Part shown: piece by piece, positions 7,239 to 27,246 of the stretch
Layout: each line of letters begins with the position of its first letter
Position numbering within the stretch: position 1 is the first letter of the stretch
NCBI RefSeq assembly: GCF_000092105.1
Contig: NC_014148.1
Coordinates: 4,140,001 to 4,172,000, forward strand
Direction of reading: 5' to 3'
Length of the DNA stretch: 32,000 nt
Source of the DNA: Planctopirus limnophila DSM 3776
GTDB lineage: Bacteria; Planctomycetota; Planctomycetia; Planctomycetales; Planctomycetaceae
Notes under the pieces: model-generated
Seen by the model: the letters and a program-made list of their open reading frames with translations, nothing else
The model's database searches: none
Told to the model about the DNA's origin: nothing
Translations under genes and position numbers: made by a program

Positions 7239-7489
7239 GGAAATTCATGGGCATTCAGGTGAAACGTACCACATGAGTTCCTGCTGGCCGATTCACGACA
7301 TTGCTAAAAGAAGATTTGTCGTTTTGAGTTCTCCAGAATGTCATGGGAAATCAGCCAGCGAAAGTTTTCCGTCTAAGTGGATTAAAGCGATCCCCGTCGA
7401 GCTTGGTTGCGAACGACTTCTCTATGTGGCAGAGTAACTTTACGCTCGCAGCAATGTTCCCTTTTTGAACTGATTCATGCGGAGTTGTT

Positions 7490-10015: not shown

Positions 10016-10795
10016 ATGGAAACGATTCAGGGACACCTCTACGACTTTCCCAAGTACTACGACCTGATCTTCGGCTCCGACTGGAAAGCCGAGTTCGACT
10101 TTCTTCAGGCCGCTTTCGAGCGCTATTCCAAGAAACCGGTGACAAGATTGTACGAGCCAGCGTGCGGCACAGGCCGCCTGCTCATCAAGCTGGCCGAAGC
10201 CGGTTATGAAGTGGCCGGGAACGACCTCAATCCGCACGCCGTCAAATTCTGTAACAACCGGTTTGTGCGCAAGGGCTTTGAACCTGTGGCGACCGTGGGG
10301 GACATGGCCAACTTCAAGCTCCCCAAAAAGGTGGATGCCATGTTCAACATGATCAACACCTTCCGTCACCTGCCCGATGAGGCGGCTGCGGAAAGTCATC
10401 TGGAGTGTGTTGCCAATCACCTCGTTAAAGGGGGGCTCTACCTGCTGGGACTGCATCTGACACCTCTCACGCCGCAGGTTTGTACGGAAGAGTGCTGGTC
10501 GGCTACCAAGGGGAGCCTGACGGTTAACTCGCGGCTATGGTCAATTGATATCAATCCTAAAACGCGCATTGAGCGGATCGGGATGAACTATGATGTCTAT
10601 ACACCCACGAAGCAGTTTCGCATCGAGGACGAAACCACCTTCCGTACGTATACCGCCCAGCAGATGGCCATGCTGCTGCTGCAGGTTCCGCAGTTAGAGC
10701 TGATTGCCGTCCACGACTTCCGCTATGATATCGACGGCGAAATCACGATCTCCGGCGATACGGAAGACGTCGTCTACGTCTTCCGGAAAAGGTAA
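10016..10795 (+). CDS. Class I SAM-dependent methyltransferase
   Basis: Part of track ORF 9629..10795. ATG at 10016 (METIQGHLYDFPKYYD). SAM motif I is LYEPACGTGRLLIKLAEAGYEVAGNDLN. The upstream 129 codons are low complexity and overlap the opposite-strand gene. Confidence 0.85.
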   Translation: METIQGHLYDFPKYYDLIFGSDWKAEFDFLQAAFERYSKKPVTRLYEPACGTGRLLIKLAEAGYEVAGNDLNPHAVKFCNNRFVRKGFEPVATVGDMANFKLPKKVDAMFNMINTFRHLPDEAAAESHLECVANHLVKGGLYLLGLHLTPLTPQVCTEECWSATKGSLTVNSRLWSIDINPKTRIERIGMNYDVYTPTKQFRIEDETTFRTYTAQQMAMLLLQVPQLELIAVHDFRYDIDGEITISGDTEDVVYVFRKR

Positions 10796-10825
10796 ATACT
10801 ATTCTAGCATGAATATTATCTATGT

Positions 10826-10856
10826 AGGGTGGGTTAAGGCTCTGCGCAACCCACCT
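10826..10856. repeat. REP-like hairpin element, copy 2 (AGGGTGGGTTAAGGCTCTGCGCAACCCACCT)
   Basis: 8-bp stem GGTGGGTT/AACCCACC with the loop AAGGCTCTGCGC. It is homologous to the element at 4101-4134 and lies 3-prime of the methyltransferase gene. Confidence 0.6.
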
Positions 10857-10879
10857 TGAACTTCTCGGAATCATGACTC

Positions 10880-11308
10880 ATGCAAACCTTTGAGCAGATC
10901 TGGGAATTCTCCCGCACTAATTCCTGGTCATGGGGTTACCCCACAGTCGTCATCTGCGGTGTGCTGCTCCTCATGGCCCTTTCATGCATTCGTTCGCCTG
11001 CCTGGCGACGAAGCCTGAAAGTGATCACCGCGATTGTTTTGACGATCCTGGCGACGGAGTTTGCAGGCCTCGAGATTATTGAGAAGTGGCAACTGCGTCG
11101 AAATTGGGCTGCTGCCCATCGGGAACAGCTCACACCTCGTCAACAGGATGCGTTGATTACTGATGGGGCCAATCTCACCCTGGGGCCTATGTTTTCTGGA
11201 GCACAGGCCGCGTTCATATTTCTTGGCACAGGAGTGGTGTTATACATCCTGCGATTGATCGCATTACGAATCTCCGCCAGTGAAGCGGAAATCAGTGAGA
11301 TGCGCTAG
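10880..11308 (+). CDS. Hypothetical integral membrane protein
   Basis: 142 aa with 3-4 hydrophobic segments. No recognised motifs. Confidence 0.55.
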   Translation: MQTFEQIWEFSRTNSWSWGYPTVVICGVLLLMALSCIRSPAWRRSLKVITAIVLTILATEFAGLEIIEKWQLRRNWAAAHREQLTPRQQDALITDGANLTLGPMFSGAQAAFIFLGTGVVLYILRLIALRISASEAEISEMR

Positions 11309-11405
11309 AGTCCTTTCCCGTTTTTTAGTATGCATTTCATGAAGAAAAGACGAGGTGACACCAGTTTCACAAGGAGTTCAATGGTTTATTCCAAGGCAAA
11401 AAAGG

Positions 11406-11738
11406 TTATTGGATGAGTCGATTCAGATAATATATTGTTAACATCACGACAAAAAACAAGATTGGCGAAACTCCTTGATCAAACTGAATACTTACTTGCT
11501 GACCTCTCCTGAATCGAACCCAAAAGAAGACTATCAACAGTGATAATAACGTCACTGTGGCTACGGCGCTTCTTGCAAGAAAAGACCAGGGAGTCAACGT
11601 TCTTAACAGATCAGTAAGTACCGTAATTGGCATATACAGATAAACAAAGGCTTTGGATAGAATCGCTACTGCCACGAGGACGATTGCCGCGCGACTATCG
11701 AAGGGCTTGTCTGGCATATCGCTTTCTTCATCACTCAT
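11406..11738 (-). CDS. Small hypothetical membrane protein (third gene of a 3-gene operon)
   Basis: Track ORF 11406..11846. ATG at 11738 (MSDEESDMPDK...) overlaps the upstream stop as ATGAGTGA, which suggests translational coupling. Three hydrophobic segments; AT-rich. Confidence 0.5.
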   Translation of the reverse strand: MSDEESDMPDKPFDSRAAIVLVAVAILSKAFVYLYMPITVLTDLLRTLTPWSFLARSAVATVTLLSLLIVFFWVRFRRGQQVSIQFDQGVSPILFFVVMLTIYYLNRLIQ

Positions 11739-12012
11739 CTGTCGACACTTTCTGTTGACCTTCTTTTCTGTTTTGCATGCCATGCCGAAGCAGATCCCAC
11801 AGCCCCGCATAGCGGAAGCTCGGATCGACATAATGCTCCAGAACATAAAAGCAGAAGTAATAGGTTCTGCACGAAGCCCAGATGGTGATCAGCAATAAGA
11901 TCAGGGCCTGCAACGAGAACTGCGGTGCCAGCAGCAGACCTCCAGAGATGATTGCCAGCAAAGCAAACAATGCTCCTTTCATCTTGAGAAGTGCGGGAGA
12001 TTTTATGTCCAT
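11731..12012 (-). CDS. Small hypothetical membrane protein
   Basis: 93 aa with two TM segments followed by YYFCFYVLEHYVDPSFRYAGLWDLL. It is co-oriented with, and tightly packed between, its two neighbours. Confidence 0.55.
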   Translation of the reverse strand: MDIKSPALLKMKGALFALLAIISGGLLLAPQFSLQALILLLITIWASCRTYYFCFYVLEHYVDPSFRYAGLWDLLRHGMQNRKEGQQKVSTDE

Positions 12013-13028: not shown

Positions 13029-13130
13029 GTGGCAAGCCCCACACATCCCAGCACCACAAACACCGAATCCGTGGCATACTCTTCCTGACTGGCGAAACAC
13101 AGCTGCTGCAACAATTCACCGAAATCCGTC

Positions 13131-14861
13131 CTAACGGGTCAGCTTCAACATCAGCTTGCTGTTCGATTCGAGCTTAGGCAGCGGCAGGATTGTCTCCGAT
13201 TCCGACTGGGCCTTGAGCTTGAGTGGCAAGACAACGGTGAACACACTCCCTTTGCCAAACTCGCTCTGCAATCTGACTTCGCCACCCATGAGCCGGGAGA
13301 GTTCACGAACAATCGACAGGCCCAGCCCCGTCCCTTCATACTCGCGTGTCAGAAGATCTTTCTGACCAGGTGTTGATTGCCCCTGCCGGAACTTTTCAAA
13401 GACCCGCTCCTGTTCTTCGAGGGGAATACCAATCCCGGTGTCTTCGACTATCAATGCGAAATGATCCAGGACTGGAGGCGCATCACCTGCTTCGATGGTC
13501 TCCGTCTGTTCTTCAGGAGATCGTTCGGCCGGGCAAAGATCCACCTTCACCCGCACCTTGCCACCATCCGGCGTAAACTTAATGGCATTCGACAGCAGGT
13601 TTCCGAGGATCTGCTGCAGTTTGCCTGCATCCTGCCATAGCAAAGGGACCTCGGGAGAAACTTCGCTCGTCAACTCGAGATGCTTCTTTTCCGCCAGTGG
13701 CATCAATGAACCCACTTGCCGCTCGACCAGATCGTAAATCGAGAAGTCGCTCGGGTGCAGTTCCATCCGGCCACTTTCAATCTTCGCCAGATCGAGCACG
13801 TCATTAATCAGGTTCAATAAATTCTTACCAGCCGTCTGAATGTTGGAGACATATCGCCGCTGTTTATCCGGGAGTGTCGAGGTCGATAACAGAACTTCGC
13901 TGAAACCCAGAATCGAATTGAGCGGCGTTCTCAGTTCATGGCTCATCGTTGCCAGAAACTCGTTCTTGATCTTATTCAGTTCAAACAGTCGCAAGTTCAC
14001 CTGGGCGAGTTCATCCACTTTACCGTCAAGATCATGATTCACATGCTGCAACTCTTCCTGCACAGTCACCAGATGCCTGAGCATGCGGTTAAAAGCATGC
14101 GACAGTTCTTCAAACTCATCGCCCGTACGAATATCGGCCCGCATATCGAGACTTCCACGGGCAATCGCATCGCTCACATCTTTTAAGTGCAGTACGGGTT
14201 TAACAATTACATAGCGCACAATCGCATAAGCAGCGAGCATGGCCAGAAATGCCGTCACAATGGCCGTCGTCAGCAGAATGGCATTGTTCCATGCCAGCGA
14301 TCGCTGGGTCTTCTCCAAAGGGAACGAAATCTTCACCATGCCGATGAGATCACCCGCCCGCAGCCTCGGGTTTTTATTGTGCTGCCGATGGCAATCGAGA
14401 CAGGAATCTGTCGCATAGACACCGCCGTAGTAAATATATTGCTGCCTCGAACGATCTCGAATGACTTTAATGACTTCCGATTCACCGCCGCGAATCGCTT
14501 CGAGAGCAATATGCCCCTCACCATCGAGGGGCCTGGCCGAAGGATTCGAAAGCTCGGCGTTTAATAGCGTCCAGCTATAATCCTTGAGTTCTTCCGGTTT
14601 CAGTTCAGCTGCCATGCGCTCGACGTTATCGGTACCGATATTCCCGCTATCCGACCATTTCCAGTGCTTCTCCATGACGATCGGAGCCACGAGCAACCGG
14701 GCGGTGGTCTGATTCTGCCGGAACACGAGATCGGTGGTTTGCCTGGCATAAATATAGAAGCTGCCGGTAATCAATAGTAACAGACCGCTACCGAAGAGGA
14801 GTCGGCATTTGCGTTCGAGGCTGGTTTCTCCCAGCATGCGTTTAATCGAGCGATACGACAT
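13131..14861 (-). CDS. Sensor histidine kinase with a heme-c (CxxCH, DUF3365-like) extracytoplasmic domain, HAMP, HisKA and HATPase_c
   Basis: TM1, then a sensor domain containing CLDCH (nt 14388-14402), TM2 and HAMP. The H-box is FLATMSHELRTPLNSILGFSE, and N/G boxes (LLSNAIKFTP, GTGLGLSIV) are present. There is no receiver domain. Confidence 0.88.
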   Translation of the reverse strand: MSYRSIKRMLGETSLERKCRLLFGSGLLLLITGSFYIYARQTTDLVFRQNQTTARLLVAPIVMEKHWKWSDSGNIGTDNVERMAAELKPEELKDYSWTLLNAELSNPSARPLDGEGHIALEAIRGGESEVIKVIRDRSRQQYIYYGGVYATDSCLDCHRQHNKNPRLRAGDLIGMVKISFPLEKTQRSLAWNNAILLTTAIVTAFLAMLAAYAIVRYVIVKPVLHLKDVSDAIARGSLDMRADIRTGDEFEELSHAFNRMLRHLVTVQEELQHVNHDLDGKVDELAQVNLRLFELNKIKNEFLATMSHELRTPLNSILGFSEVLLSTSTLPDKQRRYVSNIQTAGKNLLNLINDVLDLAKIESGRMELHPSDFSIYDLVERQVGSLMPLAEKKHLELTSEVSPEVPLLWQDAGKLQQILGNLLSNAIKFTPDGGKVRVKVDLCPAERSPEEQTETIEAGDAPPVLDHFALIVEDTGIGIPLEEQERVFEKFRQGQSTPGQKDLLTREYEGTGLGLSIVRELSRLMGGEVRLQSEFGKGSVFTVVLPLKLKAQSESETILPLPKLESNSKLMLKLTR

Positions 14862-16913: not shown

Positions 16914-17606
16914 TCAATAAGCGTCTTTCAACTTCCAGTCGGCAATCAGCCAGCCCACTAAAAGACCGATGGCCGCCCCGGCCAGCACATCACTGGGAAA
17001 GTGAGAAAGCGATTGCACTCGCTGCACTCCCACGAGGCATGCCAGAATTACAAACCAGGTTTTTCCTCGACGATACAACGTCGAAAGTGCGACAGTCAGC
17101 CCGAAAGCTGTCGCAGTATGTCCGGAAGGAAAGCTGTGGCTGGCCACTTTTCCCTCCAGAAATGGGAGTATCGAGGTGATGGTTGTCGTGATTTCGACGT
17201 TCGCCAAATCCAGCTCGCGCGGTCTTTGCCGTTCGATCAACTGCTTGGCGACATCAGCAGTCAGCCCCGCTCCCAGCGATGCAGCCAATAACCAGGGCAA
17301 CAGCCGCTTCTTCGCAGGATCCAGAACACCCACCGTCACAATAATCAGCAGCGTCCCAACCGCATGGCCATAATACTCGGCTGCTTCAAAAAACTCGCGG
17401 ACGATCCCCGGTGCCCGGTGCGCATGCACCCACCTCGCCACCGGCAAATCCCACTGAAAAGCGAGCATCGCACCCGCCACCAGGGCCGCCAGCAGTGCCA
17501 ATCGCTGCTGCCAGATTTTTTTGCCTGGCGATGATCCCCGTGGCCCTGACGCCGAGGCGAGAACTTCCCTGGCAACACTTTCACTCAATCCCGCGTCTCC
17601 CTCCAT
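16914..17606 (-). CDS. PAP2-family phosphatase (membrane)
   Basis: KxxxxxxRP-like region (KQLIERQRP) plus the acid-phosphatase motifs PSGH (SFPSGHTATAF) and SRxxxxxHxxxD-like (SHFPSDVLAGAAIG). Multiple TM segments. Confidence 0.85.
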   Translation of the reverse strand: MEGDAGLSESVAREVLASASGPRGSSPGKKIWQQRLALLAALVAGAMLAFQWDLPVARWVHAHRAPGIVREFFEAAEYYGHAVGTLLIIVTVGVLDPAKKRLLPWLLAASLGAGLTADVAKQLIERQRPRELDLANVEITTTITSILPFLEGKVASHSFPSGHTATAFGLTVALSTLYRRGKTWFVILACLVGVQRVQSLSHFPSDVLAGAAIGLLVGWLIADWKLKDAY

Positions 17607-17845
17607 CCTTGGTCAACCTGACAATGGGCCAGCCGTCAACCACCGGCGGTGCAGCGTAACTCTTTTCGCTGTAAGTCACTTCGTGGAAAAGAGCCTATCA
17701 GAAATCAGGCCCCGGCACGAATGATTCTCAGTGTTCCTCATCGAACAAGGGAGTATCAAGCCTGCCGGTTTTGCGGATTCTACCGCCAGCAGGGATTTCT
17801 GCCGACCGCAGCTTTCGAGAGGAAACCGGCCTCAGGTCCACTCTC

Positions 17846-17873
17846 TTGCCACGGAATCGGTTTTCGTTAGACT
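17846..17873 (+). promoter_or_regulatory. Sigma-70-like promoter candidate for tRNA-Ser
   Basis: TTGCCA (17846-17851), a 16-nt spacer, then TAGACT (17868-17873), about 38 nt upstream of the tRNA 5-prime end. Confidence 0.4.
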
Positions 17874-17910
17874 ATGCTGATCGGTGGGGCGACCACTTCC
17901 CGCCGATGCT

Positions 17911-17999
17911 GGAGAGGTGGCTGAGTGGTCGATAGCACCGCTTTGCTAAAGCGGCGTGGGAGTCAAATCCTACCGCGGGTTCGAATCCCGCCCTCTCCG
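17911..17999 (+). tRNA. tRNA-Ser (anticodon GCU), type II with a long variable arm; CCA is not encoded
   Basis: Hand fold: acceptor GGAGAGG/CCTCTCC, D arm GCT..AGC, anticodon stem CCGCT/AGCGG with loop TTGCTAA (anticodon GCT), a 21-nt variable arm, T arm GCGGG-TTCGAAT-CCCGC, and discriminator G. Confidence 0.93.
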
Positions 18000-18013
18000 C
18001 TTGCCGCAAAGCC

Positions 18014-18055
18014 AAAGCTCTTCGATATTTCCATCGAAGAGCTTTTTCGTTTTTC
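18014..18055 (+). terminator. Rho-independent terminator of tRNA-Ser
   Basis: Perfect 13-bp stem AAAGCTCTTCGAT/ATCGAAGAGCTTT with loop ATTTCC, followed by TTCGTTTTTC. Confidence 0.8.
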
Positions 18056-18260
18056 GGGTGATTGTTGGCTCTCGATACCAAGTTCACCCAGCCTGACCTT
18101 GGCAAATGGCGTCCAGAGGATCGTGCCCTCGTTCTCATCTCGATGTTGAAGAATGCGGTATAGCATGGCGGCCGGGTGCGATGTAGCGTGAGATGACAAA
18201 GGGCGATTCGTCACAACTCGTTTGAGATAACACGCATCGAGATTGATAAGTGCATGCCGC

Positions 18261-18300
18261 ACCGCCGAAGTGCGGTAATGTTTCACCGCACTTCGGCGGT
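18261..18300. repeat. Perfect 16-bp inverted repeat with an 8-nt spacer; each arm is itself a 5-bp mini-hairpin
   Basis: ACCGCCGAAGTGCGGT - AATGTTTC - ACCGCACTTCGGCGGT. Within each arm, ACCGC pairs with GCGGT. It ends 28 nt upstream of the first array ORF. Confidence 0.85.
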
Positions 18301-18328
18301 TGAATACCTGTTATCTGCCTAATGAAAG

Positions 18329-19525
18329 GTGGCCTTTGTGGTGCGACAAGAGCATGTATTGACTGTGTTCGTGGCTTCACCAGGTGACGTCGAGACTGAA
18401 CGCGGAAAGATTGAAGACGCAATTCGTGAATTAAATATTTCTTGGAGCCGTGAACTGGGTGTTCGTCTCGATCTCGTGCGATGGGAAACCCACGCATACC
18501 CAGGATTCGGCGTCGACGCTCAAGATGTAATTAACGAACAAATTCCTGAAGACTACGACCTCTTTGTTGGAATCATGTGGTGTCGATATGGAACCCCCAC
18601 TGGACGTGCGGGATCGGGGACGGTTGAAGAATTCGAGCGTGCTAAAGCCCGTTACGATGCGGACAAAAACTCCGTTCAGCTGATGGTCTACTTCAAAGAT
18701 GAACCTATACCTCCGAGCCAATTGGATCCCGCACAACTTGCGAAAGTCAATAGCTTCCGGAGTTCTCTGGGCAATGAAGGAGGGTTGTATTGGAAGTTTA
18801 CAGACATCGATCATTTTGAAAAACTGATTCGACTGCACCTAACCCGGCAGGTCCAAGCATGGAAATCTCGGCAGACTTCGCAAGACACGTCCATAAACTA
18901 TGGACACTCGCCAAACGAGGCCGACAAACCGTCTGACGAACATGACGACGATGGAATCCTCGACCTGATGGAGGTGTTTCAAGACAAGTTCGCGGAACTT
19001 CTTGAAATAATACAACGAATTACGACGGCAACGGAAGATGTCGGCACGAAAATGACGCAGCGAGCCGCTGAGATGAACTCGCTTCGTAGAGATCCCAAGG
19101 GCAATATAAACACAAGAGAAGCCAAGCGAATTATATCTAAGGCGGCAACGGACATGAACCAATTCACGGCTCGAATCGATGCTGAATTGCCTTTCTACAA
19201 CGATGCCATGAACACTGGAATGAATTCGTTTATCAAAGCCGCAACTATGTCTGTAGATTTGGAAAACGACACAGAGGAGTTACAACAGGGGTTGGATGCA
19301 GTGATATCCTTGCGAAGCAGTCTTGCGACATCAAGACAATCTACAGTTACGTTTCGCGAGTCTATTGCTTCACTGCCACGAATGACGACCACATTTAACA
19401 AGGCAAAACGTGGAGCTGTTGCAGCGATTGATAGGCTATTGGGCGAGTTCACTAATAGCGATCAGTTGTTAGTGGAATCCGAAGAGGTGATTCGAGAATT
19501 GCTCGATGAACCAGACGGCCCATAA
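18329..19525 (+). CDS. DUF4062/TIR-like N-terminal domain protein with a long C-terminal helical domain
   Basis: 398 aa. The N-terminus VFVASPGDVETERGKIEDAIRELN...DYDLFVGIMWCRYGTPTGRAGSGTVEEFERA matches the DUF4062 pattern (vFiSS..D...ER.....cDifvlilg.RYG) by recollection. An acidic linker follows, then ~200 aa predicted all-helical. GTG start at 18329; TTG (MTVFVAS...) is an alternative. Confidence 0.6.
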   Translation: MAFVVRQEHVLTVFVASPGDVETERGKIEDAIRELNISWSRELGVRLDLVRWETHAYPGFGVDAQDVINEQIPEDYDLFVGIMWCRYGTPTGRAGSGTVEEFERAKARYDADKNSVQLMVYFKDEPIPPSQLDPAQLAKVNSFRSSLGNEGGLYWKFTDIDHFEKLIRLHLTRQVQAWKSRQTSQDTSINYGHSPNEADKPSDEHDDDGILDLMEVFQDKFAELLEIIQRITTATEDVGTKMTQRAAEMNSLRRDPKGNINTREAKRIISKAATDMNQFTARIDAELPFYNDAMNTGMNSFIKAATMSVDLENDTEELQQGLDAVISLRSSLATSRQSTVTFRESIASLPRMTTTFNKAKRGAVAAIDRLLGEFTNSDQLLVESEEVIRELLDEPDGP

Positions 19526-19610
19526 CAAGACAATGCACCCGAGTTGCGGATCGGGCGTTACCTGAACTCAAAAGTCTCTTGGCGGCAACCGGGTGATTTT
19601 GGTCGTTATG
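19523..19610 (+). repeat. Junction repeat family T1, copy A (diverged)
   Basis: It starts at the stop codon of the upstream ORF. Hand alignment to copy B gives roughly 70 percent identity with 3 single-nt gaps. It contains the prefix AATGCACCCGAGTTGCGG. Confidence 0.55.
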
Positions 19611-19633
19611 TAGCTGAAGTCGAGGCATCCGGA

Positions 19634-20335
19634 TTGAAACGTCATCTCGCAATCGGCGACATTCATGGCTGCTATGACGCGTTGCGAAAACTCTGCGATT
19701 TCGTCGAGCTTGGACCTGAAGACACGATCATTACTCTTGGGGACTATCCAAATCCCGGCCCCGACACAAATGCCGTTCTGGATTGGCTTATCTATCTCCA
19801 GTCTGCTTACGATATTCGGCCACTGCGCGGCAACCATGACATCATGATGTTGAACGCTCGTGAAGACGATTCCAGCTACCGCAAATGGATTGATGTCGGC
19901 GGTGACAAAACTCTTCAATCGTACGCGCCTTTTGATGGCGACACCGGCTCACTCAGTGACATACCCGAGTCGCACTGGGACTTTCTCGAAAATAACCTGC
20001 TCTCCTACTTTGAAACAGAAACGCACTTTTTTGTTCATGCCAATGCGTACCCGGAGATATCGCTAGCCGATCAACCTGATTTTATGTTGTACTGGGAACC
20101 GTACGATAATCCACCGAAACACGAATCAGGCAAAATCATGGTCTGCGGTCACACGTCTCAGAAGTCTGGGTTACCGATAGCAAATTCAAATGCCGTTTGT
20201 ATTGACACATGGGCCCATGGCGGCGGATGGCTATCTTGTTTGCACGTGGAATCGGGTATGATCTGGCAATCCAATCAACACGGTGAGACACGTCGTCTCT
20301 GGCTGGATGAACTTCGCTGCGATGATGCAGAATAA
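19634..20335 (+). CDS. PPP-family metallophosphoesterase (PrpA/ApaH/lambda-phosphatase-like) with an atypical motif II
   Basis: Track ORF 19544..20335. GDIHGC (motif I), GDYPNPGPD in place of GDxxDRG (motif II), GNHD (motif III), and a later VCGHT. I prefer TTG at 19634 (MKRHLAIGDIHG, with GAGG 8 nt upstream) because 19544-19633 is homologous to the noncoding T1 repeat. Confidence 0.8.
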   Translation: MKRHLAIGDIHGCYDALRKLCDFVELGPEDTIITLGDYPNPGPDTNAVLDWLIYLQSAYDIRPLRGNHDIMMLNAREDDSSYRKWIDVGGDKTLQSYAPFDGDTGSLSDIPESHWDFLENNLLSYFETETHFFVHANAYPEISLADQPDFMLYWEPYDNPPKHESGKIMVCGHTSQKSGLPIANSNAVCIDTWAHGGGWLSCLHVESGMIWQSNQHGETRRLWLDELRCDDAE

Positions 20336-20420
20336 CATAAGAAATGCACGGGAGTTGCGGGTTGCGCGAATCCTGAGATCAATGTCGTTCGCCGCGGCCC
20401 GGTGATCTCGGTCGTTCTGC
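20333..20420 (+). repeat. Junction repeat family T1, copy B
   Basis: Starts at the stop codon TAA. Positions 20357-20405 match 23108-23156 at 47/49, including a 33-nt identical core GCGCGAATCCTGAGATCAATGTCGTTCGCCGCG. Confidence 0.85.
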
Positions 20421-20438
20421 CATCAGGCGAAACACGGA

Positions 20439-20966
20439 ATGACAACATCTGAACCAACTCTAGAAATGGTCGCCTTCTACGAGCGGCGAACCCAGGAGCA
20501 CATCGATCGTGTCCGTCGATGCCTGAATGTGATGGCATCTTTAACCGAATACGCCGCTGAACTCATTGAGCGTGCACGCATTCATGACGCGTCAAAATAC
20601 GGAACCGAAGAACGGATACCGTACATCTGGCTCACCGAATTCCATCGCTGCCGCCGCATTGGCGAACCATTCTCATACCCTGACGGAATGGAAGAACGTG
20701 TTCGATCGGCAATCCATCACCACGTGACGACGAACCGCCATCACCCCGATTTTCATACTGACCCGAACGACATGACCGATGTCGACCTGATCGAAATGGT
20801 CTGCGATTGGACAGCGATGTCGCTGGAGTTCGGGGAAGACAAAGGTAGTGCGCGCGGATGGGCGGACAAGACCATCGGTAATCATTTATACTTAAGCGAG
20901 TCCAAACGCCAGTTCGTCTACGCTATGATCGACCTACTGGACTCCAGCCTCGAATCGGATGCGTAG
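20439..20966 (+). CDS. HD-like helical protein (DUF5662-like)
   Basis: 175 aa. EHIDRV..., IHDASKY, and HHHVTTNRHHPDF resemble the His/Asp pattern of the DUF5662/HD-superfamily. The assignment is by recollection only. Confidence 0.5.
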   Translation: MTTSEPTLEMVAFYERRTQEHIDRVRRCLNVMASLTEYAAELIERARIHDASKYGTEERIPYIWLTEFHRCRRIGEPFSYPDGMEERVRSAIHHHVTTNRHHPDFHTDPNDMTDVDLIEMVCDWTAMSLEFGEDKGSARGWADKTIGNHLYLSESKRQFVYAMIDLLDSSLESDA

Positions 20967-21002
20967 CAGATGCAGAACCATCCAATGCACCCGAGCGTCA
21001 GG

Positions 21003-21197
21003 GTGGCCCCAGTTGAAATTCTGATTTCTACCGGCATGGCAAAGCCACGTAAGGTTTGATTGCCCGTCAGCGACGGCAGTTCGGATTTAGTCTCATTTCA
21101 AGCGACAAACGAGAGTCACTTGCTGGCTGATGCCTTAAACGTCTTCTGCCTGAGGCCCACAGATAGCTCGAAGACGAGCAACCTGTGCCACCCTGCG
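21003..21197 (+). repeat. Junction repeat family T2, copy 1 (195 bp)
   Basis: Aligns without gaps to 21738-21932. I count about 170/195 identical by hand. The ends are imperfectly inverted: GTGGCCCCAG ... CCTGTGCCAC. Confidence 0.85.
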
Positions 21198-21313
21198 ATT
21201 CGAGCGAATTCAGGGAAACAAGGTCTATGGTCGCCACCGGGTTACCTTTATTGTAGGGGAAGGCATGAAAGTCGAAGTTGTTCCTCCCTGTTCCGACTGG
21301 AGGACCTGGCAGG

Positions 21314-21673
21314 ATGGGACCAGAAATGTTGTCACCGATTCAGTCACTCAACCCGCGTACCGCGATCCGACTCGGTGCGGCGTATGGCGATGGAACAGTG
21401 TGGTTCTCGCTCGAAGATTCGGAAGGTCGTATCGCGCATATCTGTATTGACGGACGTGACGGAAGTCAAACACGTTATCGATTGTTCGATGGAGCACGGC
21501 ATCCAAACTCGCCTGATACAGTGCTCATTGAACTGGGGGCACCCGAAGAGGGAGTCATTGTATCATTAGCTTCTACATGGCTCGATTCGGGTACGCCGAA
21601 GGATCTTGGATTGACAGAATTTGGCTGGGATTTGATTTGTGACACGCTTCTTCGGATTGGCGAGTCGCACTGA
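21314..21673 (+). CDS. Hypothetical protein (array cassette 4)
   Basis: Track ORF 21278..21673. ATG at 21314 has GGAGGA about 10 nt upstream. No motif recognised. It is flanked on both sides by T2 copies. Confidence 0.5.
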   Translation: MGPEMLSPIQSLNPRTAIRLGAAYGDGTVWFSLEDSEGRIAHICIDGRDGSQTRYRLFDGARHPNSPDTVLIELGAPEEGVIVSLASTWLDSGTPKDLGLTEFGWDLICDTLLRIGESH

Positions 21674-21737
21674 AGGGCCGAAGAAGTTCCTGAGCCAAAG
21701 TGGCGGAACAGCATGGATTGACACGGAAACTCGCAGT

Positions 21738-21932
21738 GTGGCCCCGGTTGAAACTCTGATTTCTACCGGGGTGGCAAAGACACACAAGGTTTGATTCCCC
21801 GTCAACGAAGGCAGTTCTTATTCAGCCTCATTTCATGCGAGAAACGAGAGTCACTTGCTGGCTGATGCCTTCAACCTCTCCTGCCTGCGGCCCACAGGTA
21901 GCTCGAAGACGAACAACCTGTGCCACTCCGCC
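21738..21932 (+). repeat. Junction repeat family T2, copy 2 (195 bp)
   Basis: See copy 1. Flanked by AACTCGCAGT (21728-21737) and AACTCGCTGG (21935-21944). Confidence 0.85.
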
Positions 21933-22030
21933 GCAACTCGCTGGTAAAATTGAGATTGATAAGTGAAATGGGTCTGGTAGTCTCAGTGAAGTTTCTTTTG
22001 ACAAAGAGAGTTCGTCGATAAGAGAGCAGA

Positions 22031-22435
22031 ATGTTTGGCATTAGCTACCGATGCGATTCCTGCGACTTTACGTTCTGCTCGGGATGGTCGCATCACTCTG
22101 CTGGGCAACATGTGGTGTGCAGCAACTGCGCCGCTCACTTCATTCTTGGCGAAGGCCAATCAGAATGGGGCGCGAAAATTGGTGAGCAACTTCAATTGCT
22201 TACGGTTGATGGCGAACATGATGTGCCAACCGGCGTCTTTATTACAGTGCTGGAAAGGAATTCGGAGAACGCACACCTGCCGGAAAAGTATGGCGTTTCG
22301 CGATTGGCGTTTGATCCTGTTTCGTGTCCCCATTGTGAAAGTCTTGGCTCGCTGAGACAGTGGTTTGACGAGAATGCTTCATGCCCAAAATGCTACTCTG
22401 GGACAATACACCGCCATGGTTCATGTATATACTAA
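22031..22435 (+). CDS. Hypothetical double zinc-ribbon protein
   Basis: 134 aa. N-terminal CDSC...CSNC and C-terminal CPHC...CPKC cysteine pairs. Confidence 0.6.
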   Translation: MFGISYRCDSCDFTFCSGWSHHSAGQHVVCSNCAAHFILGEGQSEWGAKIGEQLQLLTVDGEHDVPTGVFITVLERNSENAHLPEKYGVSRLAFDPVSCPHCESLGSLRQWFDENASCPKCYSGTIHRHGSCIY

Positions 22436-22447
22436 GCGAAGGACCTG

Positions 22448-22497
22448 GCATTGCATTTGACCGAGGGTCGGAGAGTGAACTCAGACGTTCGTAAGGT
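22448..22497 (+). repeat. Possible degenerate T1-like junction element (copy E)
   Basis: CATTGCATTTGACCGAGGGTCGGAGAGTGAACTCAGACGTTCGTAAGG aligns loosely to the T1-A segments AATGCACCCGAGTTGCGGA...CCTGAACTCAAAAGTC. Weak. Confidence 0.3.
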
Positions 22498-22581
22498 CCA
22501 TTTTCCATCCTCAACGTAGTTTCTTTTGATAAACAATGTAAAGCTGCACCACCCGCCGCTGCCCAATCTCATACTAAAACC

Positions 22582-23019
22582 ATGCAAGACTCACGAACCC
22601 TTTCCACCGCACGAGTGCTGCCCTATTCACCGGAGGCGATCTTCTCGGCATTTGCATCGGCGCCGGTGCTGGCATCGTGGTGGGGGCCCGATGGATTTAC
22701 AAACACGTTCGACGCCTTTGACTTCACCGTGGGTGGCAAGTGGATCTTTACCATGCATGGGCCGGATGGTACCAACTACGCCAATACGAGCTACTTCGAG
22801 GCACTTGAGCCGGGCAAACTTGTTGTCATTCGGCATGACTGTCCGCCCTACTTCACACTCACAGTGCGCCTGTCGAAAGTCGATGGAGGCACGAACCTGA
22901 CATGGGATCAAACCTTTGATGACGCAGCGACAGCTCAAGCCGTCAAAGCCAGAGTGGGAACCGCGAACGAAGAGAACCTAAACCGACTCACTCTCGCACT
23001 TGGCCAGGGAACCCAATGA
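22582..23019 (+). CDS. SRPBCC-superfamily protein (AHSA1/START-like)
   Basis: 145 aa. The pattern RVLPYSPEAIFSAFASAPVLASWWGPDGFT...GGKWIFTMHGPDGTNYAN...EPGKLVV is typical of Activator-of-Hsp90-ATPase-homolog-like SRPBCC proteins. Confidence 0.8.
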   Translation: MQDSRTLSTARVLPYSPEAIFSAFASAPVLASWWGPDGFTNTFDAFDFTVGGKWIFTMHGPDGTNYANTSYFEALEPGKLVVIRHDCPPYFTLTVRLSKVDGGTNLTWDQTFDDAATAQAVKARVGTANEENLNRLTLALGQGTQ

Positions 23020-23095
23020 TTTGGAAATTGATCCCTGAAGTGCAATCCCCCGCACCGGCACTACCGATACTATAAACTCAACATAATGAACCGTT

Positions 23096-23172
23096 ACACA
23101 TGGAGCCGCGGGTCGCGCGAATCCTGAGATCAATGTCGTTCGCCGCGCCCCGGTGAACGGTGGGGTTCGAAT
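23096..23172 (+). repeat. Junction repeat family T1, copy D
   Basis: Positions 23108-23156 match 20357-20405 at 47/49. The identical 33-nt core is at 23115-23147. Confidence 0.85.
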
Positions 23173-23181
23173 ACCAATAGC

Positions 23182-23577
23182 ATGAGTATGCCTCAACCGA
23201 TCTTTGTCGCACTTATCGGCTCTACGGCTGAAAGAGTCTATCGCGCCAAGAAGTTTTTTCGTCTCAGCACACCCGGATTAGGGCCGTTCTACTTGGCTTC
23301 ACTGGAAAGTGAGCAATCTGGCAGTATCCAGCCACTCGTTCAACTTCCAAAAAATCAGATTACCATTTGGATCACACTGGATCCTGAATCATTTTTAGCA
23401 GCAAGCCTGCAACATCAAGTTGATTCGCTGAATCCACGATACACCCGTGGATTTTATGACGAACTTTTGCCGGAACCATGTGTCCTCGTCAACATCGATC
23501 AATCCCCAGAAGAATCAAAGGCGCTACTTGCAGATCTTGCCCAGAAAATCACTAGCGCATGGTATGCATCGTCGTGA
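23182..23577 (+). CDS. Hypothetical protein (array cassette 7)
   Basis: 131 aa ORF. No recognised motif. Confidence 0.5.
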   Translation: MSMPQPIFVALIGSTAERVYRAKKFFRLSTPGLGPFYLASLESEQSGSIQPLVQLPKNQITIWITLDPESFLAASLQHQVDSLNPRYTRGFYDELLPEPCVLVNIDQSPEESKALLADLAQKITSAWYASS

Positions 23578-23604
23578 CCCTACCTCTTAACACAAATGAG
23601 ATAT

Positions 23605-23735
23605 GTTTTCCGGTCAACGGCAATTGAGGAACCGGCGGATTTCATGTGATGAACGGTGATCGCTCGCTGTCTGGTCCTGGAAGTTTTTTTCTGCGGCACA
23701 GAGGCCGCTCGCCGATGAACAAGCTGTGCCGTCTT
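23605..23735 (+). repeat. Junction repeat family T2, diverged copy
   Basis: Positions 23610-23649 match 25071-25110 at 39/40 (CCGGTCAACGGCAATTGAGGAACCGGCGGATTTCRTGTGA). The 3-prime part, TTCTGC..CACAGA..GATGAACAAGCTGTGCC, aligns to the T2 segment TTCTGCCTGAGGCCCACAGATAGCTCGAAGACGAGCAACCTGTGCC. Confidence 0.6.
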
Positions 23736-23875
23736 GTGGTATCGTGAGTTGAGTGGGTTTGTCGTAGAAGTGCTGCCCAACAGGCCGCTGCAGCCGAAAA
23801 GCGGCGGGCACGCGCCGGGAGCGGATTCAGCATAGGGTCTCGCTGCTCGCATTTGAGCGGCAAGGCGTAAGGCCC

Positions 23876-24928
23876 ATGGGATTTAACCAAAGGGAGATTC
23901 GTGTGCTATTGAGACGACTCGTATGTTTCACTGTCCTGCCGTGCATGTGGTTATTCACCATCACCAACAGGGCCGTTGCGGCCGAGATTGAGCCCATTCC
24001 TGTCATTCTGGACACGGACATGGGCAACGATATTGATGATGTATTTGCGATGGGTATCCTGCACGCCCTCCACAGTCGCGGCGAATGCAAGATTGTCGCC
24101 ACTACCGTAAGCAAAAACCATCCCCTTTCAGGTCCCTTCTGCGACGTCTTGAATACGTTTTACGGACGAGCAGATATTCCTATCGGGGTGTTGCAAACCG
24201 GCACAACCAGTGGTGACGGCCCCTATCTCGCCCAAGTTATGAAACCACTTGCCAATGGTTCGCCCGCATTCGCACATCGCCTGCAAACGTCGAATGACGC
24301 GCCGAATGCTGTTGCTGTCCTGCGGAGAGGATTGGCAGGCCTACAAGATGCCTCTGCTGTCGTTGTTGCGATTGGCCCTTTGACGAACATTCGCGACCTG
24401 CTCGAATCGCGACCGGATGAACACAGTCCTCTTCATGGCCGGGAACTTGTGGCTGCAAAGGTTCGGTTGCTTGTCGTCATGGCTGGAGACTTCAGCAAGC
24501 CTAAAGCGGAATTCAATATTTTTAGCGATTCAATCGCTGCCGCGAAAGTCTTCAACGACTGGCCTGGCGACGTTGTGGCGTGCCCATTTGAAATGGGTGA
24601 ATGGATGCATTACCCGGAAATGAGCCTGGAAAAGGATTTTCGAGTTCCGGAGCGCCATCCCTTGCTTGTTGCCGACCTGGCAACCTTTGGTGGAAAGCGC
24701 AATGGTTTCATGGCTTGGGATCTCGTGGCTGTCCTGCACGCGGTCCGACCTGATCGCGACTACTTCAATATGTCCAAGCCGGGCAAGATTGATCTGGATT
24801 CGGAAAACGTCACACGCCTGAAGGAAGACAACGAAGGCAAGCATCGATATCTGATCCCTCGAGGCGGGCCCGAGCGTGTGCGTGAAGCAATCACAAGCCT
24901 GGCGAGTCAACCACCCTCAATTCCATGA
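23876..24928 (+). CDS. Secreted nucleoside hydrolase (IUNH family)
   Basis: Signal peptide, then the hallmark VILDTDMGNDIDDVFAM (DTDxGxDxDD). Its length is typical of the inosine-uridine-preferring nucleoside hydrolase family. Confidence 0.8.
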   Translation: MGFNQREIRVLLRRLVCFTVLPCMWLFTITNRAVAAEIEPIPVILDTDMGNDIDDVFAMGILHALHSRGECKIVATTVSKNHPLSGPFCDVLNTFYGRADIPIGVLQTGTTSGDGPYLAQVMKPLANGSPAFAHRLQTSNDAPNAVAVLRRGLAGLQDASAVVVAIGPLTNIRDLLESRPDEHSPLHGRELVAAKVRLLVVMAGDFSKPKAEFNIFSDSIAAAKVFNDWPGDVVACPFEMGEWMHYPEMSLEKDFRVPERHPLLVADLATFGGKRNGFMAWDLVAVLHAVRPDRDYFNMSKPGKIDLDSENVTRLKEDNEGKHRYLIPRGGPERVREAITSLASQPPSIP

Positions 24929-24970
24929 ACTCTTCACAGCAAAAAGATTGGCTCAAAAAGCCACTGAATT

Positions 24971-25130
24971 CGAGCGTCAGACATAGGGTTTTGATATGCA
25001 TGCTTGCAGAGAGGCCCGGATTGACTCTTTGATTTCTATCAGGATGGTGAAGCAACAAGAGGTTTGATTGCCGGTCAACGGCAATTGAGGAACCGGCGGA
25101 TTTCGTGTGACGAGCGGGGATTACTCGCCA
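24971..25130 (+). repeat. Junction repeat family T2, diverged and interrupted copy
   Basis: CGAGCGTCAG prefix as in copy 1, then ~32 nt of unrelated sequence. After that, GGCCCGGATTGACTCTTTGATTTCTATCAGGATGG..AAGAGGTTTGATTGCCGGTCAACGG aligns to the T2 5-prime half. Confidence 0.6.
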
Positions 25131-25716
25131 ACTCATACGTTTCCCAGAAAATGACTGCGCGTTATTGGTTGTGAGAACATGCTTGCCCAGAGCTGCTGTC
25201 TTTTACACACATCTCTGTATTCAAGTGTGGCTGGAGACTGCGTGGCTTAGTACGGGGTGGCTGGGGTCAAACGTCCTCGTTTGCCCCCAGGTCATGGGAC
25301 TTTGATTGTTCATGGCGAACCTGTAGAAAATCAGAAAAGCTTGTTTTGGGTGCATTTGTGCTAGTGAATTCGATTGACCAGGGGGCGGATGAAGACATCC
25401 GACCCCTGCCACCCGAATATGAAAACATGACGTAGAAAGGCGTGAAGACCACGCCCTTCCGCAAAGCCTTCAGGGTCGTGCCACCCAAGAGCGTACCACC
25501 TAAGGACGGGCCACCCTAAGGTGGGAGTTGTGTGTGATAGACAGCCCAGAGCTACAAGCAGGGCACACAAAGCGGTCTTTTTTCATGGAAAACGAATGAG
25601 TTGGAGTTCACCCTCATCCCGGCCTTCTCCCGTCAGAACGGGAGAAGGAGTTGGAGGTCGATTTGCTCTCGCTCAATGGAAGATTTTCACGGGCAATGAC
25701 GGTCAGGCGATGGCAG

Positions 25717-27246
25717 TCAGGCGAGGATGGGGTGGATGACTTCGCCATGGACATCGGTCAGGCGGTAATCACGACCCTGGAAGCGATGAACCAGTTTCGT
25801 ATGGTCAAAGCCGAGCAGGTGCATGATGGTTGCCTGCACGTCGTGAATGTGCATTTTGTTTTCCGCCACGCGGAAGCCCAGATCGTCGGAGGCTCCATAC
25901 GAGAAGCTGCGCTTTACGCCACCACCTGCCATCCACATGGTGAAGCAATCGGGATAATGATCGCGGCCCAGGATGCCACCGCCCGAAGTTCGTCCTTCGC
26001 GGAAAGGTGTTCGACCAAATTCGCCGCCGCAAATGACCAGTGTGTCATCCAGCATGCCCCGCTGACGAAGATCCTTCAGCAGAGCGGCTATCGGCTTATC
26101 CATCGAGCGGCATTTGTTGGTGAGCCCATCACGAATATCTTCGCCGGGGCCTGTGCCGTGGAAATCCCAACCCCAGTCGAAGAGCTGCACAAAACGGACT
26201 CCCTGCTCGACGAGGCGGCGGGCCAGCAGACAATTATTGGCCAGCGAGGATTCGCCGGGTTTGGCGCCATAGGCCTCAATGACATCGGCGGGTTCTTTAG
26301 AGATATCCATCACCTCGGGGACTGAGGCCTGCATGCGGAAGGCCAGTTCATACTGCGCAATGCGTGTTAATGTCTCGGGATGACCTCCTTCGAGGGCCTG
26401 CAACTGATTCAGATCGCGCAGCGTATCGAGTGTCTGCCGGCGAAGCTGGCGATCCATCCCTGCCGGATCGGAAACATAGAGGACAGGATCGCCTTTGGAC
26501 CGGCACTGCACTCCCTGAAAGACCGAAGGTAAAAACCCGCTGCCAAAACTGCTCTTGCCACCATTGGGCTGCACACCACTGGAAATCAGCACCACAAACC
26601 CAGGCAGATTTTCACTTTCCGATCCTAATCCGTAGGTGACCCAAGAACCGAGCGAAGGCCGGCCCGCACGCGGCGACCCGGTCAGCAACAAGAGTTCGGC
26701 TGGAGCATGATTGAACTGATCGGTCGTTACGGCTTTGAGCATGCACAGCTCATCGGCCACTGTCTGCAGGTGAGGCAACGCATCGGACAGCCAGACGCCT
26801 CCTTCGCCATACTGAGCAAACTGGCGTGGTGTCCCGAGGAGTTTGGGAGTGCCCGAGGTGAAGGCGAATGTCTTACCTTTCAGATATTCATCGGGACATT
26901 CCTGCCCCGTCCGTTTGACCAGCTCGGGCTTGTAGTCGTAGAGATCAAGATGAGGAGGTGAACCGGTCAGGTGAATGTAAATGACTCGCTGGGCACTGGC
27001 CTGATGATGCGGCTGTCTGGGTGACATCGGATTCACAACCATCCCGGCAGGGACTCCGCCAGCAGCATTGCTGGCATCCGCAGCGTACGCCGCCCGAGGA
27101 AAACCTCCCAGTTGTGTGGCCAACGCCATGCTTCCCAATGAAAGGCCCGTTTGCCCGAGAAAATACCGCCGGGTTTGATATGCCAGTTGTTGAGCGAGGA
27201 AAGTGGATTCGGTCATGATCAAACTCCGGGGCAGAACATCGAGCAA
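25717..27246 (-). CDS. DUF1501 domain protein (sulfatase-fold, Tat-signal)
   Basis: Twin-arginine leader (TRRYFLGQTGLSLGSMALA). Conserved DUF1501 blocks: VIYIHLTGSPPHLDLYDYKP, WDFHG, VICGGEFGRTP, GRDHYP. Partner of the upstream DUF1553 gene. Confidence 0.9.
   Translation of the reverse strand: MLDVLPRSLIMTESTFLAQQLAYQTRRYFLGQTGLSLGSMALATQLGGFPRAAYAADASNAAGGVPAGMVVNPMSPRQPHHQASAQRVIYIHLTGSPPHLDLYDYKPELVKRTGQECPDEYLKGKTFAFTSGTPKLLGTPRQFAQYGEGGVWLSDALPHLQTVADELCMLKAVTTDQFNHAPAELLLLTGSPRAGRPSLGSWVTYGLGSESENLPGFVVLISSGVQPNGGKSSFGSGFLPSVFQGVQCRSKGDPVLYVSDPAGMDRQLRRQTLDTLRDLNQLQALEGGHPETLTRIAQYELAFRMQASVPEVMDISKEPADVIEAYGAKPGESSLANNCLLARRLVEQGVRFVQLFDWGWDFHGTGPGEDIRDGLTNKCRSMDKPIAALLKDLRQRGMLDDTLVICGGEFGRTPFREGRTSGGGILGRDHYPDCFTMWMAGGGVKRSFSYGASDDLGFRVAENKMHIHDVQATIMHLLGFDHTKLVHRFQGRDYRLTDVHGEVIHPILA

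Follow-up and report, generated by a model that had tools for sequence, protein, structure and literature searches.

Between a tRNA-Ser(GCU) gene and a DUF1501 gene, the chromosome of Planctopirus limnophila DSM 3776 carries eight co-oriented open reading frames (ORFs) with repeats at their junctions. The locus was analysed within a stretch of 32,000 nt (contig NC_014148.1, positions 4,140,001 to 4,172,000), referred to below as the window and numbered from its first nucleotide. It is probably an integron-type cassette array, partly decayed and with no integrase nearby, whose junctions carry attC-type sites of about 90 nt (T1) and, as a separate element, a non-coding repeat of about 195 nt (T2). 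Since no recombinase lies nearby, the array would fall under the published definition of a CALIN (a cluster of attC sites that has no integron integrase). Arrays of this kind are already known; T2 is unexplained and undescribed, and is the sole part with some novelty.

An earlier note on this DNA had offered several readings of the locus. The first, an integron array or CALIN, is the one preferred here, given the attC architecture, the profile matches on one strand, the variable gene content, a common breakpoint at GTTA and the lack of a recombinase. Another, an array built by a site-specific miniature inverted-repeat transposable element (MITE), is partly right, and for T2 alone, which interrupts an attC at the third junction. 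A further one, a locus-specific family of terminator or processing elements, found no support: the repeats have no T-runs and their inverted repeats show the covariation typical of attC.

attC-type sites at the cassette junctions

Two repeat families occupy the junctions that follow the eight ORFs, and profile searches returned them in the order previously described: T1, T1, T2, T2, a degenerate T1, T1, T2, T2. An additional ninth junction element, J0 (18225-18316), lies ahead of ORF1. Identity between copies was far above chance, reaching 93% over 55 nt for T1 (20351-20405 versus 23102-23156), 87% over 198 nt for T2 (20999-21196 versus 21734-21931) and 86% over 70 nt for 23598-23667 versus 25059-25128. 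In the window, the T1 profile located copies at 19521-19610, 20331-20419 and 23082-23169 and a 5' half at 20974-21020; the T2 profile located copies at 20998-21198, 21732-21933, 23586-23740 and 25005-25147. The two families had been called related, but the likeness comes solely from the 5' half of a T1-type site that stands ahead of T2 copies.

Judged by its sequence, T1 is an attC-type integron recombination site. Membership was tested with nhmmer and a filter hidden Markov model copied by hand from the Planctomycetes attC covariance model (CM) of Ghaly 2021 (PMC8352920, Supplementary Data 1), whose consensus reads GCCUAAC-AAuGC-GUU-G-CAgC...GCUGAaC-UucGuC-GUUAGGC. The top match in the window was the first junction, J1, which aligned over its full length on the + strand with 15.5 bits (E 8e-4). 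The next matches were the 3' half of J2, the 5' half of J3 and the 3' half of J6, with window-scale E values of 0.4-7; on both strands of the 32 kb, nothing besides these + strand junctions was found at E < 100. In related loci, the profile matched right after cassette stop codons in P. ephydatiae (L007) and P. hydrillae (L008), and the best match overall (23.1 bits, E 5.7e-6) was the P. hydrillae ortholog of J2. A search of 26 junction snippets from five arrays gave 13 matches on the gene strand and none on the opposite strand.

J1 (19520-19611, + strand) is an intact site of the T1 family. Its boxes are R'' CCATAAC, spacer AAGAC, L'' AAT-G-CACC, L' GGTGATT (19592-19598), spacer TTGGTC and R' GTTATGT (19605-19611), with spacers of 5 and 6 nt. 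The L boxes pair at 7/7 positions around an extrahelical G and the R boxes at 3/4 informative positions, a combination unique within the window, and the bottom-strand fold pairs both R and L boxes. The L'' box with its extrahelical G corresponds to the prefix AATGCACC. The repeat prefix reported earlier, AATGCACCCGAG, is thus the L'' box; it is exact at 19532 and 20984, has two mismatches at 20343 and is loose at 24964.

Canonical attC core sites, which had been described as missing, are present as R''/R' pairs in J0 (AGATAAC/GTTATCT), J1 and J2 (GAATAAC/GTTCTGC). J2 (20330-20420, + strand) is a slightly decayed member of the T1 family (T1 profile 72 bits) with L'' AATGCACG (20343-20350), L' GGTGATC (20401-20407) and R' at 20414-20420. 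J6 (23081-23171, + strand; T1 profile 62 bits) has a mutated R'' ACATAAT, followed by L'' GTT-A-CACA, L' GGTGAAC (23152-23158) and R' GTTCGAA (23165-23171); in both J2 and J6 it is the 3' half that the published profile matches. J0 forms the end of a longer module, T0 (18137-18316, + strand), and is the array-proximal site. Its R'' and R' lie at 18225-18231 and 18310-18316, and it contains a perfect 16-bp hairpin (arms 18261-18276 and 18285-18300) with a single-stranded DNA fold z of -6.0. J5 (22438-22493, + strand) may be a short degenerate attC composed of R'' GAAGGAC, CTGGC, L'' ATTGCATT, L' AGTGAAC (22474-22480), TCAGAC and R' GTTCGTA (22487-22493); its box spacing of 7+5+8...7+6+7 fits the published model, and its profile match is weak. 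In the test of attC architecture, J1 was full, J2, J5 and J6 were partial, and J0 combined canonical R boxes with an atypical L''.

An end-to-end alignment was obtained for nine T1 copies drawn from four genomes, and the R and L helices are kept in it. Paired cells make up 74% of these helices, compared with 28-54% after sliding the partners, and only 2 of 500 shuffles reached the covariation score; compensatory CG/GC changes are present. A home-made geometric attC scan performed no better than background at a loose threshold; with a strict threshold, the few sites that it returned all lay on the gene strand, and 48 kb of background gave none.

The position of the sites relative to the genes follows the cassette pattern. 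In ORF1 and ORF2 the stop codon falls within R'' (CCATAAC and GAATAAC), and in ORF3 the R'' lies 6 nt past the stop; all eight ORFs are co-oriented, in keeping with cassettes of one, mostly promoterless ORF followed by a site at or just after its stop codon. The first cassette of P. ephydatiae ends in a textbook site, ACCTAAC-AAGAA-AATGCACC...GGTGACT-ACTGAC-GTTAGGC. At the start of cassette 3 stands G|TTCTGC, to which the R'' of that cassette in J3, GCAGAAC, is the exact complement (7/7); the cassette of P. ephydatiae that encodes 236 aa likewise has GTTATCC and GGATAAC (7/7). Matches of this kind between an R'' and the preceding R' are what one would see if the cassettes had each been closed circles at one time.

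Variation of the array among related loci

Related loci were collected by scanning with a T2 core pattern, which led to two contigs of a Planctomyces metagenome-assembled genome (MAG) and one metagenome contig (L003); cluster members then gave access to the orthologous loci in P. ephydatiae and P. hydrillae. The strict pattern misses the copies of the latter two species, so these scans say little about distribution. The comparison of orthologous tRNA-Ser(GCU) loci suggested in the earlier note showed that content and order vary: five versions of one locus were obtained, differing in the genes between tRNA-Ser/PAP2 and DUF1501. P. limnophila carries ORF1 to ORF8. The P. hydrillae array consists of DUF6881, CAP12-TIR, Metallophos (ORF2), RNase_T, AHSA1 (ORF6) and ORF7, and that of P. 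ephydatiae of a 77-aa gene, an SLFN_AlbA_2 ATPase, ORF5, ORF6, genes of 150 and 236 aa, ORF8 and a reversed 515-aa gene. The MAG array (L002) contains ORF8, the reversed 515-aa gene, genes of 107 and 236 aa, ORF4, a GrpB gene, a 163-aa gene and Fic with a helix-turn-helix (HTH) gene; the metagenome contig has a 116-aa gene, ORF5 and ORF6. Cassettes ORF2, 4, 5, 6, 7 and 8 are shared in differing orders. Gene content differs in every related genome, and the block is therefore not the invariant, syntenic one that the earlier note had named as speaking against a cassette array. The comparison adds a genus-wide view, in five versions within Planctopirus, of an integron-type array outside the Proteobacteria.

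The first site provides the clearest breakpoint. J0 is kept in four genomes up to ..TGTTA, after which four unrelated first cassettes begin (TCTGCC, GGCTGA, GGGCGC and TGCCTC); in P. ephydatiae its R' is GTTAGGC, identical to the consensus R'. A boundary at G|TT is thus seen at J0 in four genomes and in the 7/7 matches of cassette 3 and the 236-aa cassette. An array with no integrase nearby has accordingly kept turning over, with different first cassettes at the same nucleotide in four species. T0-like copies also occur within the arrays of L002 and L007.

Three examples show homology breaks that lie off G|TT. ORF4 and the 236-aa gene each carry along the attC 3' half that lies upstream of them. 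ORF8 stands between the T2 copies of J7 and J8, which are 86% identical; P. hydrillae lacks this ORF and has one T2 there that connects ORF7 with the right flank. Several sites are decayed: R'' is mutated in J6, R' has degenerated in J3, and J1 is decayed in P. hydrillae. Such decay fits an array no longer in steady integrase use.

The lack of an integrase or recombinase in the window, reported in the earlier note, was borne out by a domain search of the ORFs, which covered 17.9 kb upstream and 6.9 kb downstream of the array. No recombinase was found among the called genes of L007 and L008 either. The intI gene, attI site and cassette promoter (Pc) of a complete integron were not found in the region before the array: J0 is preceded by about 300 nt, then by the terminator and tRNA-Ser. 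Integrons and CALINs have been reported in Planctomycetes (PMC4889954, PMC2426708). No paper naming an integron in Planctopirus was found, and the supplements of the IntegronFinder papers hold nothing on this genome.

The T2 element

The T2 profile detected 12 copies in six loci, all inside arrays and all in gene orientation. In about 75 kb of flanking sequence neither T2 nor T1 had a copy on either strand, and the 12 T2 and 12 T1 matches all lay in arrays on the gene strand. Every array is closed on its DUF1501 side by a T2, with orthologous terminal copies in L002, L007 and L008, and the P. ephydatiae and MAG arrays also contain, in their interior, a T2 with a T0 copy behind it. Conservation is arranged in linear blocks: TGATTTCTACC, GGTTTGATT, CCGGTCA..ACGGCAATTG and GGATTTCATGTGA.

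At J3 a T2 copy (20999-21193, + strand; T2 profile 200 bits) interrupts an attC. The 5' half of the site (20972-20998, + strand), as read from the sequence, comprises R'' GCAGAAC, spacer CATCC, L'' AATGCACC and then CGAGCGT, and is matched by both the published and the T1 profile. The 3' half (21194-21259, + strand; T1 profile positions 25-78) holds L' GGTTACC (21240-21246), spacer TTTATT and a decayed R' GTAGGGG (21253-21259), which reads GTTGGGT in the MAG. The T1 profile gives two separate half-matches flanking T2. When 20960-20998 is joined to 21197-21275, a nearly full-length match returns (T1 profile positions 3-78, 14.9 bits), and an uninterrupted site with the same 3' half lies before ORF4 in the MAG; both observations identify this T2 as an insertion inside an attC. 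The 9-nt ends of the J3 copy, CAGGGTGGC and GCCACCCTG, pair in the centroid fold.

The other copies in the window lie between a site and the next ORF or at the array end. In J4, a segment resembling an attC 5' half was read at 21703-21733 (+ strand; R'' GCGGAAC ... ATTGACAC GGAAACTCG), and homology with L002 stops at 21733. It is followed by a T2 copy (21734-21929, + strand; T2 profile 206 bits) that has orthologs in L003 and L007 at 93-95% identity, then by a T0 fragment (TTGAGATTGATAAGTG at 21950-21965). The J7 copy (23586-23740, + strand; 135 bits, model positions 31-201) is truncated at its 5' end and abuts ORF7. J8 (24961-25195, + strand) begins with an L''-like ACTGAATT plus CGAG (24961-24974), and the terminal T2 follows from 25005 (129 bits).

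T2 itself is not an attC; neither the published nor the T1 profile recognised a site of its own within it. Three other identities were tried and rejected. As a structured RNA or long attC hairpin it failed, RNAalifold on 7 and on 12 copies giving almost no consensus pairs; the single-copy fold z was about -1.6 on both strands. As a small gene it was discounted because every copy has stops in every frame and substitutions show no 3-nt periodicity. A 'mini-attC' ending in GTTGAAA, which would make T2 a canonical ORF-less cassette, would have an L'-R' spacer of 3 nt; moreover, the L''/L' covariation between J3 and J4 amounts to a single substitution, and conserved T2 sequence runs to the left of that GTT.

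A short hairpin module, GGGTGGCCCAGACGTGGCTTTGAACGTCTGGGTGAC, was observed directly upstream of some T2 copies (L001 3110-3185; L003 11876-11950; L007, orientation E, 2750-2825). Its first 11 nt are those of T2, and it may represent a T2-like end, either nested or truncated.

As to what T2 does, we consider it possible, though on balance unlikely, that T2, with or without T0, belongs to a new integron-associated non-coding class, either a non-autonomous unit of fixed orientation that settles in attC sites and junctions, caps the array and shuffles its modules, or an element that supplies promoters or regulatory RNA. A colonising element would give an array without an integrase a second route of rearrangement, and a promoter or regulatory RNA would supply what an array without Pc needs. 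T2 could show how non-attC repeats inside attC sites reshape arrays, or how cassettes far from Pc are expressed.

Assessment and proposed mechanism

Several results weigh against an integron-type array. J1 is the only site in the window that is individually significant with the published profile, J2, J3, J5 and J6 being half or weak matches; the published cut-off of the full CM for this taxon, 60 bits, lies far above the sequence-only profile scores obtained here. Membership was judged by this sequence-only proxy of one taxon model. J2 and J5 fold no better than shuffles as single-stranded DNA, the L'' of J0 departs from the model, and ORF7 has no recognisable site of its own. No integron integrase was located: in a query with the IntI1 protein, the matches listed were filled up by class-1-like proteins. 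With the exception of J0, most breakpoints in the homology of the genomes lie off G|TT, namely after L''-CGAG, near L' or at T2 ends. In L003 a T2 follows an apparently complete short attC, so T2 does not always interrupt a site and its target is not always an attC loop. A target-site duplication of T2 (CGAGCG, AACTCG) was also considered and judged doubtful, as the repeats lie off the ends and CGAG is part of the conserved attC 5' half.

We propose that T1 and J0 act as attC-type imperfect palindromes in the order R''-L''...L'-R', whose bottom strand, once folded, would be the substrate of an integron integrase supplied in trans or of a past one. Such an integrase would use the G|TT of R' to cut out and insert cassettes of one gene each; several sites have decayed since. 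T2, non-coding, fixed in orientation and confined to the array, inside an attC in J3 and elsewhere between a site and the next ORF, would provide portable homology. On top of an older or rarer exchange of the integrase type, modules may then be reshuffled by homologous recombination or slippage that involves pairs of T2 copies or of conserved attC halves. The simplest account of the breakpoints off G|TT would be recombination of this kind.

Alternative explanations

T2 could instead be a set of ORF-less cassettes, captured like the others, that carry a promoter or small RNA for the cassettes downstream; we regard this as unlikely. Such cassettes with promoters or small RNAs are documented (PMC8876359), the array lacks a Pc from an adjacent intI, and each T2 lies upstream of a cassette ORF in sense orientation. 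The L003 copy behind an apparently complete short attC fits as well, and conservation in linear blocks is what protein-binding DNA would show. However, no sigma-70-like promoter was found in T2, and neither profile found an attC of its own. The J3 copy sits inside an attC and not between two complete sites, and conservation with T2 continues leftwards past the putative G|TTGAAA boundary, which would not be predicted of a cassette boundary.

The locus might also be a tRNA-linked hypervariable island or defence hotspot, whose content turns over through other mobile elements and through homologous recombination at the conserved flanks; in that case T1 and T2 would be locus-specific hairpin or spacer repeats, such as transcript ends or RNA stabilisers, with a convergent likeness to attC. 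The defence- or toxin-like cargo speaks for it (the PDC-S60/TIR-like ORF1, CAP12-TIR and the SLFN_AlbA_2 ATPase in relatives, Fic plus HTH in L002), as do the many breakpoints off G|TT and, in P. hydrillae, a 1-kb insert at the tRNA 3' end that is flanked by a repeat of that end. In the window, by contrast, the 19-nt tRNA 3' end occurs once even with 3 mismatches allowed and no integrase is present; as this end is not repeated, the locus is not a classical tRNA-bounded island. Also against a hotspot are matches of a published attC profile on one strand only, canonical box spacing with an extrahelical base, covarying R and L helices, an identical GTTA breakpoint with four unrelated continuations, and R'' boxes complementary to the preceding R' at 7/7 positions. 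No T-run follows the hairpins. Taken together, we find this explanation quite improbable.

We assign a similarly low probability to non-canonical capture, in which T2, with or without T0, would be the real mobility module, served by a recombinase encoded elsewhere (a candidate being an IS1111/IS110-type DEDD enzyme with a guide RNA), and the attC-like sites would be its targets. T2 is restricted to the arrays, fixed in orientation and closes every array; T2-T0 composites occur in L007 and L002, and several module boundaries coincide with T2 ends. The J3 copy is cleanly inserted, has short inverted repeats at its termini and lacks a clear duplication, properties common to attC-targeting IS1111 elements (PMC11187229). 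On the other hand, no transposase was found in any of the loci, the T2 inverted repeat measures 5-9 nt versus 11-13 nt in the IS1111 family, and the 12 T2 copies yielded neither a conserved RNA fold nor an Rfam match. The paralogous copies are old (87% identity versus 95% between orthologs) and there is thus no sign of recent T2 movement; the J0 breakpoint, moreover, needs no T2.

Finally, generic genome-wide repetitive extragenic palindromic (REP) or MITE repeats on an ordinary conserved gene block are extremely unlikely, for although a different dispersed repeat does lie at the right edge (25219-25453, with a copy elsewhere in L003), the gene block differs in every genome, and T1 and T2 have no copy in about 75 kb of flanks and are always oriented as the genes.

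Comparison with known systems

An integron-type cassette array thus remains the preferred reading, and CALINs (Cury et al. 2016, PMC4889954) are its closest counterpart. Both have several attC-type sites, mostly putative ones here, less than 4 kb apart, each with a single ORF in the common orientation; in both, intI is absent over 10 kb or more, the location is chromosomal and the cargo is unlike clinical resistance cassettes. The present array differs in its many decayed or split sites, in a conserved proximal J0 that behaves as an insertion point, and in being bounded and interleaved by T2. With sedentary chromosomal integrons, for example those with Vibrio VCRs (Vibrio cholerae repeats), it shares attC sites that are alike within the array (J2 and J6 cores, 93%), a locus fixed across the genus, strain-specific cassettes and toxin- or defence-like cargo. 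In contrast to them, it has no adjacent intI, attI or Pc, holds eight cassettes only, and combines several attC subtypes with non-attC modules.

The sites follow the Planctomycetes attC family (PMC8352920) in box order and spacing, in the TGCA core of L'' with its extrahelical G, in the TGA of L' and in the AAC/GTT of the R boxes. They deviate in having AATGCACC versus GUUGCAgC and GGTGATT versus GCUGAaC, and in their low scores.

Like IS1111-attC elements and group IIC-attC introns, the J3 T2 lies inside an attC in fixed orientation, with no obvious target duplication and with short inverted repeats. Unlike them, T2 is about 195 nt long, encodes nothing, shows no Rfam group II intron signature and has no autonomous partner in sight; some copies are not in a recognisable attC, and the inverted repeats are shorter than the IS1111 sTIRs (subterminal inverted repeats). 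T2 does not qualify as an IS1111-attC element, having no ORF or DEDD transposase, an inverted repeat of 5-9 nt versus 11-13 bp and no conserved RNA fold; it is possible that it is a non-autonomous derivative of this type. With ORF-less integron cassettes (PMC8876359) it shares the form of non-coding units among cassettes, in sense orientation upstream of promoterless ORFs, but T2 lacks a recognisable attC of its own, and no promoter or RNA structure was detected in it.

Gene content and neighbouring features

The tRNA-Ser(GCU) gene (17911-18000, + strand; ARAGORN; Rfam tRNA, 61 bits) forms the left anchor of the locus and is kept in L003, L007 and L008. A terminator hairpin (18014-18045) lies directly 3' of it, and the eight ORFs (18329-24928, all on the + strand) follow with mutually unrelated Pfam assignments; the description of this succession in the earlier note was confirmed with ARAGORN and Pfam. 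In a scan of the array for sigma-70 promoters and terminators, the tRNA terminator alone exceeded shuffles. An Rfam scan of 17500-26000 gave the tRNA as the sole match at E < 1, leaving T1 and T2 with no known RNA family, and a plasmid search with J3-J4 as query gave no match. The flanking genes are usual for planctomycetes (PSCyt/PSD1, DUF1501, sulfatase, and a histidine kinase with SpoIIE phosphatase).

ORF1 (18329-19525, + strand) has a DUF4062/TIR-like N-terminus (Pfam DUF4062) and matches the PADLOC candidate defence family PDC-S60 (E 8.6e-51). ORF2 (19634-20335, + strand) encodes a metallophosphoesterase (Pfam Metallophos, 1.3e-11) with an ortholog within the P. hydrillae array; TTG at 19634 is its likely start, the longest ORF running from 19544. 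The ORF1-ORF2 pair (18329-20335) has a counterpart in L008 at 6285-8389, where the orthologous metallophosphatase comes after a CAP12-PCTIR TIR protein; the TIR-like gene and metallophosphatase may form a two-gene defence module spread over two cassettes. Part of the cargo resembles phage-defence or toxin genes, in keeping with the idea that chromosomal cassette arrays serve as reservoirs for them.

ORF3 (20439-20966, + strand) belongs to DUF5662 (Pfam, 5.2e-40). ORF4 (21314-21673, + strand) has no family and has a homolog at another array position in the MAG. Upstream of it lies an orphan fragment of a GrpB-like gene (21265-21303, + strand; MKVEVVPPCSDW), consisting of the first 13 codons and identical to the start of the full-length 180-aa gene of L002 (2593-3135, - strand). 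With this fragment before ORF4 and the full gene after it, a 65-nt direct duplication flanks ORF4 in the MAG. ORF5 (22031-22435, + strand) is Cys-rich with a weak Zn-ribbon and is present in L003 and in the L007 region. ORF6 (22582-23019, + strand; ADG69039) is an AHSA1/SRPBCC protein (Pfam, 1e-17) found in all four other arrays that reach that point. ORF7 (23182-23577, + strand; Plim_3226) has no family and is also present in P. hydrillae. ORF8 (23876-24928, + strand; ADG69041) encodes a nucleoside hydrolase (Pfam IU_nuc_hydro) with a signal-like N-terminus. A cassette from Tokyo Bay sediment, TokyoGC21.1, with an ORF of 396 nt, was reported to have its best match in a hypothetical protein, unspecified, of Planctomyces limnophilus (PMC3146285).

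The distal end of the MAG array (L002 618-1603) carries an HTH antitoxin-like gene and a Fic/DOC gene in reverse orientation. Toxin-antitoxin cassettes are often reversed like this in chromosomal integrons.

In L008, an insert of about 0.8-1 kb with the DUF6881 gene lies between tRNA-Ser and J0 (496-1290, orientation H). A direct repeat of the tRNA 3' end (CCTCTCCGCT..) flanks this insert, which is present in P. hydrillae only, has no counterpart in the window and looks like the remnant of a tRNA-targeting integrative element.

To the right of the array, a repeat of about 235 nt (25219-25453) has an 86% identical copy in L003 (5765-6002). That copy lies at a place corresponding to the intergenic gap 13031-13149 of the window, and the repeat is therefore regarded as a dispersed element unrelated to T1 and T2. 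A REP-like palindromic element of 28 nt (GGTGGGTTAAGGCT..GCAACCC(A/T)CC), likewise unrelated to the array, occurs twice in intergenic positions (4104-4131 and 10828-10855). The G+C content falls to 0.47 at 3000-4500 and 10500-12000, compared to 0.52-0.60 elsewhere in the window, and these stretches carry ORFs with no Pfam match (3487-4035, 10880-11308 and 11406-11846).

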